From Octopus vulgaris (lineage: Eukaryota), in NCBI GenBank assembly GCA_951406725.2, contig OX597818.1:21886001-21950000 (forward strand): a stretch of 64,000 nt of DNA, written 5' to 3'. Position 1 is the first letter of the stretch. Each line of letters begins with the position of its first letter. Both the position numbers and the translations under genes were made by a program. Of the stretch, positions 23,216 through 64,000 are shown in pieces. Below the pieces are notes generated by a model. The model had not been told where the DNA came from and searched no databases. It saw only the letters and a program-made list of their open reading frames with translations.

Positions 23216-24755
23216 CATCATCATCATCATCATTTAACGTCTGTTGTCCATGCTGGCATAGGTTGGATGGTTTGACTGGGCTGGCACGCTGGAAGGCTGT
23301 GCTAGGATCCAGTCTGATTTGGCATGGTTTTCTATGGCTGGATGCCCTTCCTCACACCAACCACTCTGAGAGTGTAATGGGTGCTTTTACATGCCACCAG
23401 CACAGGTGCCATTTGTGTAACACCACTATCTGCCATGACCACAATTTTGCTCAGTTTGAAGGGTCTTCTCAAGCATGACATAATGCCAAAGGTCTTGGTC
23501 ATTGCCTCCATGAGGCCCAACACTTGAAAGGAGCTCAGCCACTTTGCCTCCATGAGGCCCAATGCTCAAAAGGAACTCAGCCACCTCACCTCCATGAGGC
23601 CCAATGCTCAAAAGGAACTCAGCCACTTTGCCTCTAGGAGGCCCAACATTTGAAAGAAACCCATCACTTTGCCTCCATCATGCCCAACACTTGAAAGGTA
23701 CTCAGCCTCTTTGCCTCCATGAGGCCTGACATTCAAAAGTTGATTTGCTTTTTGCATGCCACCAGCACAGGTGCACTTGGCTTCATGGGTCCTGTTAAGC
23801 TGAGCTCATCACCAAAGGTCTTGGTCCCTAGTCATTGCCTGTGAAGTTCAAAGTTCGAAGTCATGCCTTACCGCCTCATCCCATGTCTTCTTGTGTCTAC
23901 TTCTACCACAGGTCCCCTCCACAGTTAGAGGTCAGCACTTCTTTACATGACTGTCCTCGTCCATACACATCACATGACCATACCAGTGCCTCTTATACCT
24001 AACTTTTCTCTCAAAATGCTTACACTCTGTCAAACATACACACTGACATTGCACATCCAGTGAAGCATACTGGCTTCATTTCTCTCAAGTCTATGCATGT
24101 GCTCAGCTGTTATAGCCCATGTTTCATTGCCATGCAGTAAAGCTGTTCACCTACAGGCATCAAACAATCTGCCTTTCACTCTGAGGGAGAAGCCCTTTGT
24201 TGCCAGCTGAGGTAGGAGCTCTCTGAACTTTGCCCAGCCTAATCTCATTCTCACAGCTACGCTCTCAGAACAACCAACTCCACTACTAACCTGGTCACCT
24301 AAATACCGGAAGTTATCTACTACTTCTAGCTTGCCACCCTGGTAGTTGAGGGAGTCTATTTTCCACACATGTTCACCATTTATTATACCTGTGCACCTTC
24401 CACATACAAAAGTTAGTTTCTCTGTTAACCTTCCTTTGTTGCTGCACGTTTTGTGTGTCCAAAGCTTACACTGAATGCATCTTTTGGAGTTTCTGCCTAC
24501 ACCTTTTCTACAGATTGAGCAGGACCATCTACCCGAGTGGATTTGTGATATGTTTGCCTTTCTACTTACTATGACTTTGGTTTTTGCTAGGTTAACTCTA
24601 AGGCCCTTTGATTCTAGACTTTGTTTCCATATCTGGAATTTTGTCTCTAACTTAGGTAGTGATTAAGCTATAAGAGCAAGGTCATCGGCATAGAGGAGCT
24701 CCCAGGGGCATCCTGCCTTGAATTCCTCCGTTATTGACTGGAGGACTATGATAAA
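23216..24755 (-). mobile_element. 5'-truncated RTE-clade LINE (RT C-terminal half, 3'UTR, (GAT)n tail)
   Basis: Minus strand reads FIIVLQSITEEFKAGCPWELLYADDLALIA* (YADD at 24681-24692), GLRVNLAKTKV, VVDNFRYLG, WAKFRELLP, WYGHVMCM, GRSRHKKTW. It has in-frame stops and ends ..GACGTTAAATGATGATGATG. Confidence 0.93.
23504..23738. repeat. 42-bp minisatellite (~5.5 copies) in the RTE 3'UTR
   Basis: Unit GCCTCCATGAGGCCCAACACTTGAAAGGAGCTCAGCCACTTT with drifting copies and no spacers. Confidence 0.9.
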
Positions 24756-45808: not shown

Positions 45809-46676
45809 CTAAGCATATTTCCCATTTAGTATTGGAGAAGTTTCATTTATAAGGACATACTCCCGTATTTGTCTGAGTGTTGGGTCTTTTGGGTGCTTGG
45901 ATAAGATGTGGATGTCAAGTTGACCCAAATTGCCTCCATGGTGGTCTTTGGCAGTAGAGTATGGAGTACTGTTTTTTGTTGTCATATTGTCTCAGATGTT
46001 CATTTAGTCGTTCTGCAATGCTCTTAGATGTCTCCCCTATGTATGTCATGTTCATGTCTTTACAAGTGCCTTCTATGCATCTTATGCTGTAAACTACATT
46101 TCGAGTTCTACAGTTAATACTAAGGCTAATCCTACATAGCATGCAGTTATCATTGGTGCATATGGTATTTTCAAAGAGGTATGTCCTACATAGTTGCGAT
46201 CTGATGGAGGTCCCTGGCTTTTCAACAATCTTAATGTTGAGTTTGGTCTTCTTCAGTGCTTTTCTAAATCTACGAGCTAATTCCCCATGGGCTGTGGCCT
46301 CTACAAACATCACTCCTTGATATATGTCAGTTTTATACCACGTGTTCACCCTGTCTGCTTTGTCACAAATTCTTTGTATCCTATTCCATTCTTTGTTTCT
46401 ATATCTGGTATCATTACGTATAATGTTGTCTAATTTCTTTCTAGACCCTGTATACTTGAACCCTATCTTTCTGATCATATCCAGAGAACGGCATGTGGTG
46501 CATGAAGTTCTGTATATGTTTTTTCGTTTCATGAGATGGGCAATTCTTTCTTGTCTTGGGATTCACGGTCAAGCAGCTGGGTGGAATTGTGTGAAAAATG
46601 ACACAGATATGTAGAATGATCTGGTGGTGTTGCTGGGCTTTGTTTTTTTTCATAGCTCCCATGGTTACCGAGATAA
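45809..46676 (-). mobile_element. Penelope-like element fragment: RT thumb, Cys linker and GIY-YIG endonuclease (pseudogenised)
   Basis: FMHHMPFSGYDQKDR (RT C-terminus), CTNDNCMLC..NC linker, VVYSIRC..TYIGETSKSIAERLNEH (GIY-YIG). After a frameshift it reads LRQIREYVLINETSPILNGKYA*. The Cys-rich linker suggests a Neptune-type PLE. Confidence 0.9.
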
Positions 46677-53941: not shown

Positions 53942-54039
53942 CCATCCTTAATTTGGCTGGACAGCAATACAATGCTAACTGAATGCCCTCCTTGCTAGCA
54001 AACACTTTATGCTTTATTATAAACATGAGCACTAGGACA
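53942..54039 (+). other. Weak candidate exon
   Basis: Branch-like ATTAAC, then TTTCCCCTTTTCAG acceptor (G at 53941); possible donor A|GTAACC at 54040. Confidence 0.3.
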
Positions 54040-55499
54040 GTAACCTTTTCAAAATGAAAATTTTATCTTCCACATTTAATAGGAAGGATATTCACTTATT
54101 TCATCATTTGCATGGAGAAAAAATGTATAAACCATAATAGAAACTGATTTTACAATGTGTAAACTAACTACAGGTGTGTTCTGTAAATGATTTCATAGGA
54201 TACTTGAGAAACTCTTTCTGCATATGTATTGTGTATCTATTTTCCTTTTTTATCCTCATCACTGACTGTGAGAAGCTATGGAACAGTATTCTATATGCAC
54301 AGATCATTATAATTACATGCAGTGAGAGCAGTTATGTGTTTATTTCTATATCATATTTCTAACAAGAATAGACTGGTTGTGTTTTCGCTTATATAATAAT
54401 CAAAAAGGATAGTGAAATATTAGTAACATTCTTTTTAGAATACTGAGCTTATTTTTGGAATATGTTTAAGTAATAAGTTATTATTAATGAAAAAATGAAA
54501 TGTAAGCTGATGGAATGTTTTGTAGTTGGTACATAAGAGCTTGAGAAATGATTCCTTAAAAAATATGAATAACTAATGTAGAGAAGATAGCCAATACAAA
54601 GAAGAGACATCAGAAATGATGGTCAAAATTTAAAGTGTTAGGCCTCAGGATATAATCCACATATTGTCATAGAAAAGGTGAGCCATCCAACCCCCTACCA
54701 GCTCACTAGAAGAATATCCTGTGAAACAATAATGTTGATAACAACAATGATGATGATGATTTGCATACCTTACTGTTTTTCTGAACTCCTTTAAATTGAT
54801 TTTCTCCTACGGTGATCCTGGATCAATAACACTTGACCCAATAAAATACTGATCTTCACCAAGTAAATTCATACTTTTGTCATTACATAAATTGGTTTAC
54901 AACTCTAGGAAAGATGGTAACTACATGTACAAGATGAAATCAAATTGTTCTTTAGTGTTTAGAACGGAAAAACTGGGAATATGAAATATAAATGACTGTT
55001 CTTTGTAAAAAGTTCAATACAAAATTTGTATTATATTTAATGTCTCAATAACATGAGTGGTTTTATGCACAGTAGAGCTGCTTAGGTTTAATCAGTACAT
55101 TGTCAAATTATCAAATTGCATTTACCGTTACTGTTTGATGTCTGTCCACAAACGAACAAGACGTTCTCAGTTACTAAGTAGTTATTACAGTTTAGTATGA
55201 TTGGTGTGATTCATCAATGCAAACTGTAGAAAACTGTAAAATATCAATGTGTTGTATTTGTTTGTAGAGCTGAGTTCAAATCTTTACCTCATGTATGTAA
55301 AGTCTGAAGAGAAGTCTCAGCTAAGCTGACTTATTCTAAATATGCTATGTGAAACTGAAGTCTTCATTGATACTTCTATAAGACTTACTATTGCCAAATT
55401 GATTTAAAACTTCAAGTTTGTTAGTGATTACAAATGGGATGTGGTGATGCATGTTTCTTTCCCATGGATAATAATATCAATTACCTGACTGAAATCACA

Positions 55500-55850
55500 T
55501 TAAGCCAAGGACAATGATTCTAGCTGTTTTACTAAAATTATATTGAGTCAACTTTGACATTGTGGTTAGAGAGGACTGCAGAGTGAATGCTTCTAACATG
55601 ACTTGAGCTGAAGGTATGATTTTTAACTTAGGGCTGTGTAAGAAGTTGCTTATACCAAAGAAAATAGCCTGATAGAGCCCGCCCCTTTCCAAAATATGCC
55701 CATAGGATGAATTGAGCTCTCTATACTGAAAGCTAACAAAACACTTGACACATTTTACAGCATTGTTCCTATTTACAGCAGTGAATCATCCCTTTTCTGC
55801 AATACTTATTTTCAGTTAGATGGTCTGAGCTATTTAAGATTTAAGTTGCT
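55500..55850 (-). pseudogene. Possible DIRS-type tyrosine recombinase relic
   Basis: Broken frames give LK*LRPSN, WYKQLLTQP*VKNHTFSSSHVRSIHSAVLSNHNVKVDSI and SKTA, reminiscent of the DIRS YR segments LKQSRPG, WIKQ.L..AG....F.AHSTRS and DSILKTAGW. Confidence 0.3.
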
Positions 55851-57744
55851 TAACTATGGCATAAGTGCTGATGGTAGGAGATGGACTTTCAATTTCTTGA
55901 CTGGAAGTAATAGTTTGTCCTGTACTTTTACAGGTGTAATAACTTGTCCTGTACTTTTCCAGGTTCATAATCTTAAGAATATGACTTTCCATGCTCATAT
56001 TTTTCCATGTAATAAAGATCAGGGCTTGATGTAATCAACTAATCTCCTCCTCTGAAAATTACTAACCTTGAGCCTATTAGAAACCATTTTTTTTCCACAC
56101 CATAGTTGACCCATTTTCAATCTACTAAGAAGTGTTATTAACAATATTTGCATTCTGTTTGATATAATGAGCATCTCTAGGTGTGGCTTTATTAACTTTC
56201 TGTTTGTTTGTTTTTTAGTTTATGCGTACTTAGGAAATAAAGAGCAAACTAGTTTATTTGAAAGTGATGCTTTTACAGAAAGTTGTTGGATTGTAATATC
56301 AAAAAAAACCCAAAAAAAACGCTTTCCTTTGTCAACAAACTCTGGCATTTTAAATCTGTTATGACAGTCAGTAGAGGGTTATTGTTGTCAAGTAGTTCTG
56401 ATCAGCTCTCTTCAACAGACCTGTAATTTGGAGGACAAACCAAAGAACTTGTGTGTGTGTTTTACTCCAAGTAATGTCTTTAACTTTGACAGACTCTTCA
56501 GGCTGGTGAGATTGATTTGTTGAGATATATTGATCTTATGCCTTGTCTAAGTTCATGCTCGACATTCTATCAGGAAGTGTTTATGGAAATTGGTTCATGT
56601 AAAAGAAGTTTGGACAACAAAAAATATGAGCTGGTATGTGCAAGACTGACATCTGCTCGAATATGGACATAATGTGAATGGGCAATATGAGCGCTAAGTG
56701 AAAAAGTACTATTGCCTGAAAGTACTCACAGGAAAACCAACAAAGAATCAGGCAGTGACGAAGTCAAATCTTGACATTTTAGCTCCCAGATGAGATGATC
56801 GGTGATATTCTATGCAACAGACCCACCTGTTGCATGTTAATATGAGAAAAGAAATGACACTAAAACATTGATGCTGATGACATGAATGATGCCGAAAGCC
56901 ATTAAGGCTTTCTTTAAAGCTGATGAGGATGTTTTGTAGGATAGGAAGGATAGGATAGATAGTAGAGATTAGCTTGAAGTATTACAAATTTTTACTGCAA
57001 AAAAATATTAATAATCTTCTTGAAGCATAGTGGATGGGCGGTTGAGTTTAATTTGGTTTATGATAAGTGTTACAGGTCATCATTATTAGTTGGTGTAAAT
57101 TTAAAGACAGGAAGGGTGTCTTTGAGGGTTGCAATTCTAGGAAGGAAAAACTTGTCTTGTATTTAGTGTAACATAAAACTTTCTTTCTCCTTCTCTCTCT
57201 CTCTCAAATATATTTATAATATATGTGTTACACTGGTGTGTGCGTGTGTTTTCAGTGGGTGCAATTTTACATTGTCAAGTTGTCCATCTTAATGTTATAT
57301 GTTAACTTGTCTGTAAATTCATAATCCTTACAAATAAAAGCTTATTCGATTCAAGTTTGTTCATATCATTTGAATAGAAAACAGACATCATTATTAACAA
57401 CTAGCCTCCTCATCATGATGTTTTCAGATTATGAAAATTATAGCTATGTATATAAGAGACCATCATAACTCTGGACAAAGACTAGGATTTTAGTTGCTCA
57501 GCTGCTGTACTAATGCTTGCTGTTCCTCATATGGAAAATTTAATACAAGGTTCAGATAAAGATATCTTCCATTTATGTACAAAGTCAGCTTTTGTTGAAA
57601 AGCTGGTTGCAGTATATTGCTGGTACATAATTTTTATTGACTCTAATGATGAAAGGCAAGGTCAATCTCTGAAGTACTTTAACCCATAACAGTTAAACAC
57701 TGAATTCTGAAATTTTGATGATGGTTGATTATCTGGTGCAGATT

Positions 57745-57965
57745 TTTTTCTTACTTTTTTCTTTTTGAATTTTTTTACCTGTTAAGTCTGAAGAGAGGGA
57801 ATACTTAAGGTTCTTTCTTAAGTCTGGGAGACAGAGATACTGAATGTGTTGAATATGTTTAGCTTGATCTTCTGGAGATTTGAGGTTGGGAGGGAAACAT
57901 GGGTAGCAGGAGGTTGTAAAAGTATGTAGTTCTGGGAAGAGGAGAGATGTTGGGTAACTGGTCAT
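57745..57965 (-). mobile_element. CR1/L2 LINE extreme 3' end
   Basis: Minus strand ..LFPRTT..NLL..VFP..NLQKIK.. followed by CTTCAGACT and an A-rich tail, like the end of the 808-1343 copy. Confidence 0.55.
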
Positions 57966-59573
57966 ACTATCCTCATTGACCTTAGTTGGGTTTAAGTAAT
58001 GTGATTAAGCAGTGAAACCAATTATACTTAAAATCCATATTCCATTTCCTTTCCTTTCATCGTCAGTGTTGTGTAACTTTACACACACACCCCTCTGGGT
58101 TATCTCTGATGTGTGTGTGTGTATGTGTGTATATTGTGTTTGTCAACTATAGTCAGTGTTTGAATTGAATCTGGTCTTGCCAAATGTCAAAGTATAAATC
58201 CCATGCTACTAGAAAATAACAATATTAAATATATATTCTTGACTATCCTATTCTAAATAAAATTCTAAAGAATTCAGGAATGAATGTGGAACGCGCGTCC
58301 ACGCACACACACACACTCTATTTCTCTTAGAAAAATTAAGTAATTATGATACAATAGGAAATAAAATCTTTTGTATGGAAAGGAAAAATTTTTTCTTTCC
58401 TTTTCTTCAACATCCCACTAGTACTATACTGTACCTCAATATTTGGGTTCTGTCAAATTATACTTTAGAAGTCAAAACTTATTTGATTAGTTATATTTTA
58501 GTCTTGTTATCAGAAAACTAGTGGTGTGTGAGGGAAATAGTTATGGTCTACATTGGCAAAATTAAGTTCCGAAACTTCCATAAATTCAAATATTTTTTCC
58601 TTTCAAGAATAATCTTGTCTCAAAACATTTGAGAACCCTTGTTTCTCTACAACATATAATCACATTCAGATATCCATGTTTATGCATTATTCACACTTCT
58701 CTTAACATTTATTAACACCTTTAACTTGTTTTGTATTGTATTTTTTTAATAATATTTCTTGTTTATATGTTTAGTTATACCTGGTTTTTGGGGTTTTCTT
58801 TTTCACATGAAGGGCAACCAATTAAATTGTGCAATGTATAATAACCAAAATAACCCAAATAGTGCTGACCACAGGACCAGGTTACATATATCATTTTGCT
58901 CAAGTTACATATATCAGAGTTTAAAAATATGACATTTTAAAATAGTTAATAGAAAAGCTTTATTTTTCTCATTCAATGTAGATGTTTTTACTTGTTGGGT
59001 TCTTTTTTAAAGTTCTGTATGCGTGTACACATTCATGGATTCATCCTTGTATATATTTGACTAAAACTGTATACTCCTTTAAAATGAAAGGGTAAAAATC
59101 AAATATTTGACTCTGGGACTTGCCTGAAATTAAAAGAAGCCATAAAAAGGATTTGTCTGAAATATGGCACAAGCGATTTTTATTCCTTTGTGGTATTTAT
59201 GAGAATTTTAACTGTGTTTAGTGGTGAGTGACTTTGAAGTAAAGGATAATTTTTCTCTTGGCAAGCTAAGACATCAATGTATTTTCTATTCTTAGTTGAA
59301 GCCATTTAATTTTACTTATATTTACTTCAGTTGACTTTAGGAAATGCATGACTGTTACACTTCTTATTTACAGTTAATCTAAAATATAAGGCTTTTGTTC
59401 CACACCAAAAAGAAACCAATATTTTATTGTTATGAGAAAACTACATCATCATCATCATCATCATAATCACCATCACTACTATCATCATCATCATCAAATC
59501 ACAAACAGCACAAGGTATACACCATGTCCCTGAAGAGACATGCGAGCAGTAGTGTCTGTTGGGGGTGTAGAAT

Positions 59574-59715
59574 TGTACATTATTTACATTTGACAGATAT
59601 TTGTCCTCATCTTGTTTGTTGTTAACATAACATTTTGGGTGATACACCCTCCAGCCTTCATCAGGTGACTTGGGGAAATTTCGAACCTGGGTTCTCATTC
59701 CTAGGGTATTTTCGA

Positions 59716-59759
<44 letters not shown>

Positions 59760-59830
59760 TCACTGCCTAGGATCGAACTCAGAATCTTGGGTTTAGTATC
59801 CTGCGCTCTTAACCACTACGCCATATGCCC
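59574..59830 (-). mobile_element. tRNA-headed element with (AAT)n and hammerhead motif, left copy
   Basis: Minus strand: GGGCATATGGCGTAGTGGTTAAGAGCGC (A box), GAGTTCGATCC (B box), (AAT)n, a second B-box-like GGTTCGAAAT, then a hammerhead at 59624-59669. Confidence 0.85.
59624..59669 (-). ncRNA. Minimal hammerhead motif, more degenerate copy
   Basis: Minus strand GTCAC-CTGATGA-A-GGCTG-GAGGGTGTAT-CACCC-AAAATGTT-ATGTT. Confidence 0.55.
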
Positions 59831-59888
59831 GTGGTTAAGAGCGCAGGCGACTGACCCCAAGATTCTGAGTTTGATTCCAGGCAGTGGA

Positions 59889-59924
<36 letters not shown>

Positions 59925-60102
59925 TAACATCGAAAACTACCTTAGGAATGAGAACCCAGGTTCAAAATTTCCCCAAGACACCTGATGAAAGCTGGTGGGT
60001 ATGTCAGCTGAAACATTGTGTTAACAACAAACAAGATGAGGACAAATATCCGTCAAATGTAAATAATATACATAATACCTCATCTCTTAAATAGAGAACT
60101 GT
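59831..60102 (+). mobile_element. tRNA-headed element with (AAT)n and hammerhead motif, right copy (first 14 nt missing)
   Basis: Inverted copy of 59574-59816 that extends ~30 nt further at its 3' end. Confidence 0.85.
59977..60022 (+). ncRNA. Minimal type I hammerhead ribozyme motif (probably mutated)
   Basis: Stem I GACAC/GTGTT, core CTGATGA (59982-59988), stem II AGCTG/CAGCT, then GAAAC-ATT (60010-60017; reconstructed consensus GAAACGTT). Confidence 0.75.
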
Positions 60103-63100
60103 GCTACATCTGTTATTTCTTGTTTTTTTATTATTATTTGTTTTTTTTTGTGGGGGGGACTTTAGTGTTTTTCATCTGTTGTTGTGTGTTATATAAATAA
60201 TGTAAGTGTTGATAATTTCTTCAGTAGCGAATGTTTTATTTGTGTTGTGTGGGTTATGTGTTTTAATGTTGGATAGTGTATGTGCTGTGTGGTTGTGTTA
60301 TATTATTTGATGGTAGTTGTGCAGAATGCATGTTGGTGTTTTTTTTTTTTTTTATTCTTATTGAGTGAATTGGGTGGCTAGGTTGGCAGTGCTGCATACA
60401 GCCATCTCTTCAGTCCTCTATCATCTATAAGATGTCCAACATCTTGTCATTCCACTTCTTTCCATATTGTTCTTGGTATTCTTTTACCTTTGGGAAAATT
60501 CGTTGTCTATATATATTTGGCATCCAGCAGACTATTTACAATACATATTGAGCAAGACGAGTACAATTGTTTCCCTTGCATACATTGACTGAGGCTTTTA
60601 ATAGCAACCTGCTCTCTCATTTACAATCATGCACATCACTCAATATTCCAGAATTTTATAAAGATATATTGAATCTATTTTATAAAATTTTTCTTAACAT
60701 TCAAATATTTCAATTAAAGTACCAATATAGATTTGAAGGAAAACTTAAATGAGTTTCTGCTTGAATAGTTTACTTCAACGTTAAATCAGTTAATTAGTTT
60801 GCTTTTCATTTTCTAGAAATGATAAATGAGGTATTGGTCATGTATAAAAATAGGGGTCTTTCTTAGAAATTTATGACCTTGAATAAAGGAGACTTATATT
60901 ACAGTAAGATCATGGGAGGTAAAGTTTATTTTTTAACCCTGACTCTTGGGTTAATCTGAGACTTACAACTTCATTTGAATGCTTATAACAGAGTAGATTC
61001 CACTAAAGGGTCAGATGGTGGTGTTAAACTGAGCAATGGATTAAGTCTACTGCTCAAGAATTAGTTAATGACAGACAAAATGCTTTGTGGTGTTTGCTTC
61101 AGTCCCTTTGCATTCTGAGTTCACTCACCCTCCCAAGTTGACTTTACCTTTCATCCATCCCAGTTCCAAAACACTTGTGCTAGTGTTAAAAATAGCCGTT
61201 ATTATTGATAGAGAATAGTGATAAAGAATAGATGGTAAGTTTGGCAGGATGTTGGACATTTAACTCATTGCTCTAACAAACCTGCCATCTATTCTTTATC
61301 ACCATAACAATTGTTATTGTGAGGATTATAGTAATACTGTGCATAGACAGTAGCAAGAAGAGATTTTTATCTTTCTGAAGTAAAATAAAATAAATACTGG
61401 GTTGTATATTTGGTTTCATTTAATGGTCATTTGTCCTAGCTACACAATTGGCTTCAAATCTCATTTTTATCTATTTATTAATTTTAGCTGTAATTTCCCA
61501 GAAAATTAATACTTCCAGCTAAAATCACTTCATTACTTCTCTTACAACTTTGAGAAAGGCAGGTTTGTCTCACAATGCACATTGCACTTTATAAATGCAA
61601 TAAAAATATCAATAATAAAATTCATTTGACTAGATTAAGAACATTTTAACAAGAGAGTATGTATAACCTATTGAACTATCTTCAATTTATTGATTGATGT
61701 TTGTGTTATGATATCAAGAAGAATAACAGGAAATGTTGACTTGAGCATGTAATTAAATTTTTAAAAAATCAAAGAAGCAGTATAAAGACGATAATAATAA
61801 AGATTTATAGAGGAGAGGCATAATATCACAGATTTTTAATGGGGCGGAGTTTAGTATATACATAGTGTATTACTGATACTTATTGATCCCATGTGGAGAA
61901 AAAGCAAAACTTTTTTACAGGGATAATTTTTGTAGGATAAATATATAGTTTATTGATTCAGGTACTATTTTACCATTTATCCCACACCACCACAGAAGTG
62001 TGAAAGGCAAAATCAATCACAACAGGATTTGAACTCACAGCAGCAAAGAGTGAAACTGAATACTACAATGCATTTTGTCTGGTACTCTACAGTTTAGTAT
62101 CTCTACTATGTTCTTAATGATATTTATAACGATTTTTATTTCATTTTACTTTTGTATATTCATTTTTCCATGCATGGGTAGGAGGATTTATTTGTTACAG
62201 CTGGATACCTATCCAACCACTAACCATTGGGCCCTGAAGCAGGGAGTGAGTGGTGCCTGTTTTTGCTGCTGGGTCAGCCAAAATGAAGCAATGTTGAGGC
62301 TCTTACCCAGGAAAAGTAGCACAATAACAGTAATAAGATCTAAATTTAGGGCCATGTGAACCATAACCTGCAGTTTAATCTTACGGCCATTACCCTTCTG
62401 AATAATAATGTTAATGGTGGTGTTAATGATTAATATTCTAAAAGCAATGACGCTATTATTTGGTACAGGTGAATTGAGTGGGATGAAAACCAACATACAT
62501 TCCTGTTATCAAAATACTTCTTGTATTTTTATGATTTATCACAATAAATGTCTTTGGATAGCGTCTCCACCCTGTTAGTGACCATCACCATTTGGGTGTC
62601 AGCTAAGTACATTTATTAAAGAATGTTAGCTTAGGTCTAGAGCAGTGGACTGGAAGAATTAGTATAGAACAAAATAAAAACACGTCATAGTACTTAGTCA
62701 CATTTCTTTGCATTCTGAGTTCAAATCTCACTAAGATCAACTTTGCCTTTCATTCTTCTGTGCATTAACTTTGCTTTTCGTTTTTCAAAAATCAATGCTG
62801 CTTTTCATTGTCTTCAAATTGATGAACTTATTACTGTATTCTTCTCCAAAATTTGCAGCTTTATACCTATGTTAGAAATTATCATTATTAGTAGAATTTT
62901 TAATTAGGTTACTAGCCAAAATACTTCTGAGACTGATACAGTTGATGTTCAGCTGGAGTATCTGTAAATCAAGTATTGAGTTATATCCATTCAAATTTTG
63001 ATTTCTAATAGCCAATGAGTTCACTTTGCTTTTCATTTTCCTAGGATCAATATAATACAGGGGTTAATTTAATTTATATCACCTCTCACCACAAAATTCA

Positions 63101-63121
63101 TGGTCTTGTGCCTGCATTAAA

Positions 63122-63266
<145 letters not shown>

Positions 63267-64000
63267 ATTTTCATTAGCATCTTCTTACAATTCTGTTTCC
63301 ATTTCTTGCCAAGTGACACCTAGGGCAGAGAAATGTACTGTATACATTGGTAGGCCATTAAAGCAAACACACCAGATTGTTCATTTATAGAGTAATGTGA
63401 AGGAGGAAGACAGAGAAAAAGGAAAAAATAAAAAATAGAAAAGTAAACAAATAAATGGGGGAAAGAAAAGAAAATTCACAGCGACAATGCTCTTCTCAAT
63501 ATGTGTGATGTACCAGTTAAGGCAATCTTTTACACTTCCTGCATGCATGGTAAACCAGGAATCATTCTTAAATAATTTTCAATTCCTTTTTTGATCATTC
63601 CAAGTGCTCCTACAATCACTGGTATTGTAACTGTCTTGAGATGCCACATCTTTTTGATTTCAATTAGCAAATCTTTATATTTTCTGAGCTTATCAAATTC
63701 TTTTGCTGAGATATTATGGTCACAGGGTATGCCCATGTCAATCAATAAACAGACTTTATTACTTTTGTCTTTCACATCAATATCTGGTTTATTTGCCTTG
63801 ATGGTCCAGTCTGTACATACTTGGAAGTCCCAAAGAATAGTTACATTTTCTCCCTCAGTTACAGCCTTAGGTTGGTGCTTGTACCGTTTGTCAGTAGTTT
63901 TGATTTAATAATGCCGACACATCCAATGTAGATATTGGCCAACTCTGTCATGTCTTGATTTGTACTCTACAAGTGCTAAAACCTTACATCCAGAGATTAG
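63267..64000 (-). mobile_element. R4/Dong-type non-LTR retrotransposon 3' end with restriction-like endonuclease (continues beyond window)
   Basis: Minus strand RHDRVGQYLHW..ILWDFQV.TD.TIKANKPDI.VKDK..CLLIDMGIP..KLRKYKDL..IPVIVGALG..HILRRALSL* (PD..D and K..KY RLE motifs) with stops. The 3'UTR abuts the GAT/AAT microsatellite. Confidence 0.9.

Follow-up and report, generated by a model that had tools for sequence, protein, structure and literature searches.

The palindrome at positions 59574 to 60102 of the window (the whole 64-kb stretch of DNA analysed here) is built from a repeat unit that is almost certainly the pseudo-LTR of an autonomous EN+ Penelope-like element (PLE), inserted with an inversion. 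The feature itself probably represents one decayed insertion of the pseudo-LTR end of this element, for which a short Pol III RNA is the likely template. The palindrome and its hammerhead are explained by known PLE biology, and the unusual part is the tRNA-derived head with its putative promoter.

Results

Organization of the window palindrome

As the first-pass annotation had described, two copies of ~245 bp lie head to head, their inverted arms (59574-59816 on the minus strand and 59831-60072 on the plus strand) being 88% alike over 245 columns. The 14 nt between the arms (59817-59830) correspond to family positions 0-13 and belong to the left copy, of which they had rightly been called the 5' end, and the next four bases (59831-59834) are common to the end of the left copy (59834) and the start of the right copy. 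The right copy is actually ~30 nt longer on its 3' side and reaches 60102. The A and B boxes, the (AAT)n run, the CTGATGA core, stem I and stem II noticed at the outset are all present in the pair. No target duplication was detected at this insertion, and no further family copy was found elsewhere within the 64-kb window. The parts of the feature are as follows.

59574..59834, minus strand: inverted, 5'-truncated PLE pseudo-LTR copy, from family position -4, ending ~30 nt before the tail end
59624..59669, minus strand: decayed minimal type I hammerhead of the left copy, with stem II, G12 and C15.2 altered
59716..59755, minus strand: (AAT)n run of the left copy, between head and ATG, of a length that varies between copies
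59756..59830, minus strand: tRNA-derived head of the left copy, with A box (59813-59823) and B box (59770-59780) both full
59831..59834, no strand: microhomology junction, a 4-nt overlap of both copies, from the sequence set against family positions
59831..60102, plus strand: tail-bearing PLE pseudo-LTR copy, beginning at family position +14
59831..59892, plus strand: tRNA-derived head of the right copy, with the A box mostly gone and a CpG change in the B box (59867-59877)
59893..59925, plus strand: (AAT)n run of the right copy, as read in the sequence
59948..60102, plus strand: first ~51 codons of the PLE frame, from ATG 59948, spanning hammerhead and tail, with one stop here
59977..60022, plus strand: minimal type I hammerhead of the right copy, with a predicted cut after 60017 and G16.2 lost
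60073..60102, plus strand: ~30-nt PLE tail, on one side only, from alignment to the family

In the right hammerhead, stem I comprises 59977-59981 and 60018-60022, the core occupies 59982-59988, an extra A stands at 59989 and stem II comprises 59990-59994 and 60005-60009; the G10.1-C11.1 pair is also changed. Judged by their sequence, both ribozyme copies in the window are most likely dead. Moreover, one copy is antisense in any single transcript, so that the window pair cannot form a double hammerhead. If read through, the pair is predicted to fold into a long hairpin of 232 pairs.

The window also holds an unrelated inverted repeat at 61215-61305, whose 29-nt arms match at 90% across a 33-nt gap and are flanked by more complementary sequence and which could be a small hairpin or a transposon remnant, and three open stretches on the minus strand (63533-63904, 24150-24662 and 45918-46562) that we take to resemble fragments of non-LTR retrotransposon proteins.

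The repeat unit is contiguous with a PLE reading frame on both sides

At L029, L011 and L024, the C-terminus of a GIY-YIG frame lies directly before the tRNA-like head, and the head comes right after the stop codon in 36 of 37 distinct loci selected by their GIY-YIG protein (39 of 40 rows, with 3 duplicates; the rows were the 20 best matches plus 20 with long open frames, of 150 scored). RT motifs were found upstream of the GIY-YIG end by stepwise extension. On the other side, body and tail run uninterrupted into the N-terminus of an RT-GIY-YIG frame at L110 and L118, and continuity of the tail with the ORF was observed at 32 loci (30 of 70 pattern matches, plus L110 and L118). The full element reads head, (AAT)n, ATG, hammerhead, tail, RT, GIY-YIG, stop, ~30 nt and head again, with a repeat unit of ~2.66 kb and ~833 codons, and its frame starts at the ATG equivalent to window position 59948 and reads through the hammerhead.

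Protein homologues at 54-68% identity (P0001-P0005) carry RVT_1, and the Atlas neighbours of the protein indicated PF26215/GIY-YIG at 0.97; a Pfam scan of a 290-aa piece alone returned 0 families, and a PDB sequence search gave no real match. The single ORF with RT and C-terminal GIY-YIG is present in linked family copies and absent from the window itself, and stops or frameshifts occur in all sampled family copies. The same sequence both precedes the ORF and forms the 3' end of the element, the hallmark of a pseudo-LTR, together with the features of EN+ PLEs, namely an inverted 5'-truncated neighbour copy, a one-sided tail and a sense-strand hammerhead within the pseudo-LTR. From its motifs and its likeness to the PAc layout, we tentatively assign the element to the Penelope/Poseidon clade.

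The Penelope link drawn by the first-pass annotation is thus upheld, since the unit adjoins the PLE ORF at either end without a break and its tail, in linked copies, continues into the RT-GIY-YIG frame. Its proposal of a separate non-autonomous family borrowing PLE proteins is not sustained: the unit is best placed as the pseudo-LTR of the autonomous PLE itself, with a fixed PLE tail and a contiguous ORF instead of the LINE-type 3' end (poly(A) or simple repeat) of a separate SINE family. Two parts named earlier, a "second B-box-like motif" at 59959-59968 and an "AT-rich tail", turned out to consist of codons of the frame that starts at ATG 59948; the former, being coding sequence, was set aside as a promoter part.

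Family size and form of insertion

A 24-mer from the tail gave 4478 exact matches in the genome searched (G000; 2.8 Gb in 227 contigs), in agreement with the large family that had been anticipated, and its reversed control gave 0. Given that exact matches were found in 10 of 41 tails of independently chosen loci, we estimate ~18,000 tail-bearing copies (11,000-36,000). Copies diverge from the family majority by 4.4% outside CpG and by 21% at CpG sites, and decay neutrally. With regard to editing before insertion, A>G changes are not in excess on the sense strand (1.3% vs 1.8% for T>C). Short copies outnumber ORF-linked copies by about 6 to 1. The family is also present in runs X1-X20 under five organism codes and is hence common to relatives. 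The (AAT)n run drifts to AAC, GAT, AAG or CAG triplets in many copies, and at L005:1860-2210, L300, L308 and L065 other repeats have inserted into it or expanded it.

Insertion architecture was scored in 170 tail-selected insertions, comprising 90 of the first 100 listed among the 4478 matches (all located in the initial 53 Mb of a single contig) and 80 of the 124 matches to a variant differing by one base (spread over 12 contigs), a sample that leans to young, tail-bearing copies through its exact-tail selection. An upstream inverted copy was present in 110 of the 170 and adjacent in 101, whereas a second copy on the same strand (head-to-tail) was found in 5 and a tail-to-tail arrangement in 2. 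Inverted copies ended 25-36 nt short of the tail end in 95 of the 110 cases. Target duplications of at least 10 nt (one mismatch allowed, mode 12) flanked 68 of the 110 inverted insertions, compared to 1.2% of shuffled pairs. Head-to-head inversion is the family's normal insertion form, and the inverted dimer, once viewed as a functional unit, is a routine insertion scar. Furthermore, the points of 5' truncation in the two copies that make up a dimer are independent of each other, indicating that the dimer is not copied as a unit.

The tRNA-like head and the edge of 5' ends

The head was best matched by host tRNA-Arg genes (46 of 76 positions identical, z=8.3, for the best; z=7.6 for another), which confirms its tRNA derivation without fixing the source tRNA, as 11 host tRNA genes of 6 amino acids were compared. 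In the family, the A and B boxes are intact at tRNA spacing, with no cloverleaf and an unpaired acceptor stem, and ARAGORN found no tRNA in the window nor in any of 5 family loci. Substitutions in the A box are not below expectation (ratio 1.12), and the ratio for the B box is 0.69. The body lies downstream in 24 of 30 head-selected loci, and none has a different body, so that the head was rejected as part of another SINE. The junction between ORF end and head (family positions -14 to +9, window 59821-59834) is a near-palindrome resembling a head-to-head junction, and the head may have been captured through an event of that type.

We mapped 280 5' ends of copies, of which 115 reach the head and 98 of those stop within -20 to +19, as against stop rates of 17 of 132 in +20 to +59 and 4 of 17 in -60 to -21 (Fisher 2e-32 and 5e-7 vs the head, respectively). 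While 27 ends fall at -7 to -4, none falls at -13 to -8, which gives the profile an abrupt edge, 13-14 nt ahead of the A box, that is present in both samples and in both orientations. The ends at the head include 50 junctions with one partner only ending there and 14 solo copies. Genome-wide, exact 20-mers number 5148 in the head vs 896 just upstream, and among 30 head-selected loci 1 extends far into the ORF end and 2 slightly. The step in 5' ends is also found in reads of a related organism. None of the 32 tail-into-ORF loci extends beyond -17 at the 5' side, and only 4 reach +29 or further. Two additional end peaks, at 70-79 and 230-239, were discarded as artefacts of pooling caused by the (AAT)n run and a 9-nt repeat.

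On balance, we read this edge as the mark of a Pol III start within the pseudo-LTR, in which case the Pol III transcription claimed by the first-pass annotation is probably right; this reading rests on where the copies end. The RNA 5' end would lie ~6 nt upstream of the tRNA-like sequence and 13 nt before the A box, and the start-to-A-box distance of type 2 Pol III promoters, as in SINEs, fits a 5' end near -6. A Pol III start at the head would also explain why copies are mostly short and SINE-like. TTTT occurs 0 times on the sense strand of the majority unit vs 2.9 expected (p=0.03, synonymous shuffle; p=0.007 by base shuffle, 0.07 and 0.24 under Markov orders 1 and 2), which is weakly consistent with Pol III read-through. 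In two poly(A) runs of a related organism, reads run in both directions and 83-86% extend into unlike flanks; no pile of read starts or ends was seen in these runs, such libraries being poorly suited to Pol III RNA.

The same pile of ends could be caused on a long Pol II RNA by a hairpin or palindrome at -14 to +9, through RT stalling, fold-back or cDNA annealing, with the tRNA-like piece as a passenger derived from an old SINE head that became fixed in the 3' UTR. The start region is indeed predicted to form a hairpin of -11.6 kcal/mol, which leaves the position of ends called at -7 to -17 ambiguous and might by itself halt or divert RT. Moreover, 8 of 10 solo or one-sided ends called at -7 are preceded by A, as fold-back predicts, and the poly(A) reads reveal passenger transcription only. 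However, 85% of the copies stop at the head, yet the hammerhead stems are crossed easily, most junctions are one-sided or solo (64 of the 81 loci that have an end at the head), and the sharp edge is found beyond the hairpin, 13-14 nt ahead of the A box. We consider this explanation unlikely. Still less probable is that Pol II initiates at the head from the usual internal Penelope promoter, or that the RNA is processed there, with the tRNA-derived segment lying at the same place by coincidence. The known promoter in the Penelope pseudo-LTR is LINE-like, TATA-less and internal, according to the available text of PMC2377424, and translation would be easier from a capped RNA; against this, the edge and the intact A box are spaced as in SINEs, and the B box follows at the correct interval. 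As for processing, an RNase P-type cut at 0 is made unlikely by the many copies that keep native bases at -4 to -6, and the acceptor stem is unpaired. A Pol III start remains our preferred reading of the edge.

The hammerhead motif within the frame

The family motif combines CUGAUGA and an additional A with a stem II of 5 bp whose first pair is G-C, GAAAC-GUU and a stem I of 5 bp, matching the traits of minimal PLE hammerheads given in the available text of Cervera and de la Pena 2014 (PMC4209133). The full set of minimal type I features is present in the family majority, and the set is incomplete in both window copies. Two CpG-type changes in the window pair had been taken to point to GAAACGTT, and the family majority concurs (C at 74% and G at 70%, ~229 rows), so that the minimal hammerhead with a palindromic ACGT had been correctly deduced. 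The AGCTG/CAGCT pair of stem II, taken as compensatory, reflects chance and not covariation: the C>T change is found in 1 of 8 copies with the G>A change vs 40 of 192 copies without it (Fisher p=1), and no covariation was detected within the family. The motif is intact in 70 of 207 spanning copies, and its only common core variant is the free position N7 (47 of 222), also a third codon position. Stems I and II have a predicted pairing probability >0.9 when the motif is folded in isolation; stem I drops to 0.02 within the whole short RNA and is predicted not to form there. Rfam returned no hammerhead or tRNA match for window positions 54000-64000 or for two better-kept copies, and, given no Rfam or ARAGORN call, the evidence for hammerhead and tRNA consists of alignment and folding.

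Among the 60 primary ends at positions 110-229, 12 lie within 8 nt downstream of the predicted cut (p=0.0005), or 9 of 57 after dropping three microhomology jumps (p=0.013). This excess suggests cleavage in vivo and could also stem from a stall at stem II or at a local palindrome. In vivo hammerhead cleavage of PAc went undetected in RNA-seq, as stated in the available text of PMC11167929. Ribozyme processing of the element RNA, as first proposed, is a weakly supported claim. Deletions begin at family positions 190-199 (window 60014-60023) 45 times, vs at most 12 in other 10-nt bins, and 25 of these 45 are 3-nt, in-frame deletions at 190-193 across the predicted cut site; they may be due to GTT/GTG-repeat slippage or be the scar of copying across a cut.

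An independent non-autonomous retrozyme-SINE with its own master genes, ribozyme processing and a functional dimer, for which the 6 to 1 ratio of short to ORF-linked copies and the 12 of 60 mid-body ends after the predicted cut might speak, is highly improbable, and as a separate family largely refuted, in view of the contiguity with the PLE ORF on both sides, the absence of a SINE-specific body and of poly(A), the rarity of head-to-tail repeats (5 of 170), a ribozyme cut that would strip the promoter, and dimer copies 5'-truncated at independent points.

Hammerheads were also seen in other PLEs. A distant PLE on a metagenome contig (L351:2380-2430), with 30% protein identity to P0001, carries a near-identical hammerhead core with a different, fully paired stem II. 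Among nine loci of metagenome relatives, one has a hammerhead and none fits the A/B-box pattern. A second, younger PLE family in G000 (L321-L350, 27 of 30 loci) has a C/T-rich sense strand, frames of up to ~1,200 codons and neighbours ~4.5 kb apart, and ends at (TA)n runs. This unrelated family carries its own minimal hammerhead, of the same fold and with other stem letters (19 of 27 loci), and is mildly depleted in TTTT (69 vs 94 expected, a hand sum over 27 non-independent loci), which further weakens the absence of TTTT in the first family as a sign of Pol III read-through. No A/B-box head was found by pattern search in its 27 loci, indicating that the head is not generic.

Discussion

The comparisons made here draw on the available text of the papers cited. 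EN+ PLEs such as PAc share with this element an RT with C-terminal GIY-YIG, a pseudo-LTR, and an adjacent inverted 5'-truncated copy by the 5' end with a one-sided tail of 30-40 nt (PMC11167929, PMC8557442). The hammerhead of PAc overlaps the ORF start, the ORF beginning in stem II, and is likewise in frame here, although the AUG lies ~70 nt upstream of the cut in our element and 26 nt in PAc (PMC11167929). What distinguishes our element from EN+ PLEs is the A/B-box head and (AAT)n run in its pseudo-LTR, with 5' ends piled there. At the motif level, the hammerhead appears to share with minimal PLE hammerheads a type I core, an extra nucleotide 9/10.1, G10.1-C11.1, a palindromic 15.2-16.2 and the lack of a loop 3 (PMC4209133).

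The RT of PAc, a Poseidon element of Anolis, uses two start sites in vitro, with both strands nicked and extended (PMC11167929), and the one-sided tail of our family corresponds to these two sites. By analogy, the element protein would bind the tail region and nick both target strands, and two cDNAs would be primed from sites ~30 nt from each other and both extended in the direction of the RNA 5' end, before being joined via the 4-nt microhomology into a head-to-head pair with the tail on one side. In this scheme, the double nick and dual priming are modelled on published PLE biochemistry, and the joining of two cDNAs by microhomology on the junctions observed.

Several other systems resemble the unit in part. 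In schistosome Sm-alpha and Sj-alpha, a Pol III-type promoter also lies upstream of a hammerhead whose cut splits promoter and body, but these are described as non-coding tandem repeats, whereas here we find the terminal repeat of a protein-coding element in inverted copies (PMC6765202). Animal non-LTR retrozymes are, as here, short hammerhead repeats related to PLE pseudo-LTRs (PMC7229834; bioRxiv 10.64898/2026.07.22.740005), but they form head-to-tail arrays and circular RNAs (PMC7229834), whereas head-to-tail copies occur in only 5 of 170 insertions here. The Cassandra, Helenus and Ajax TRIMs also contain small-RNA-gene sequence in a terminal repeat, which in Helenus is a tRNA piece, but are non-autonomous LTR elements, in contrast to an autonomous PLE (PMC10886601). 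The available text of the retrozyme preprint (10.64898/2026.07.22.740005) makes no mention of tRNA or Pol III, and that of the octopus repeat papers PMC13282606 and PMC8967140 makes no mention of such a promoter in a PLE. In the articles searched, outside Repbase/Dfam and supplements, no autonomous PLE is described with a tRNA or Pol III promoter, and a SINEBase search gave reference-list matches only. Supplements of repeat-annotation papers may list this family. Octopus SINEs reportedly include one named "Twin" and tRNA-Arg/Lys types.

With a Pol III start at the head, an intact downstream pseudo-LTR would yield a SINE-like RNA of ~285 nt or more, ending at the next T run and copied in trans, while the upstream pseudo-LTR would yield the coding RNA, possibly also from Pol III. 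A ribozyme cut would remove the promoter and AUG. As the hammerhead is located inside the frame, downstream of the AUG, it is predicted to act as a brake or switch and to be unneeded for copying. More tentatively, and with less confidence than in the start itself, we propose that Pol III may make an uncapped coding RNA from a captured tRNA-type promoter, with avoidance of T runs, a hammerhead serving as a translation switch, and the element acting as a SINE factory.

The family offers a large natural record for testing how PLE inversions form and whether hammerheads cut in vivo, and some two thirds of the insertions sampled are inverted repeats, which could give rise to dsRNA if read through. 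If the element is Pol III-driven, it would be a protein-coding retrotransposon using a polymerase that normally makes short non-coding RNAs, providing a direct path from an autonomous PLE to SINE-like progeny with no separate SINE birth, and thousands of repeats likely labelled "tRNA-SINE" in such genomes would be PLE ends. If the wider proposal is true, the element would generate its own SINEs and would capture, in progress, the way in which ribozyme SINEs of the Sm-alpha kind originate.
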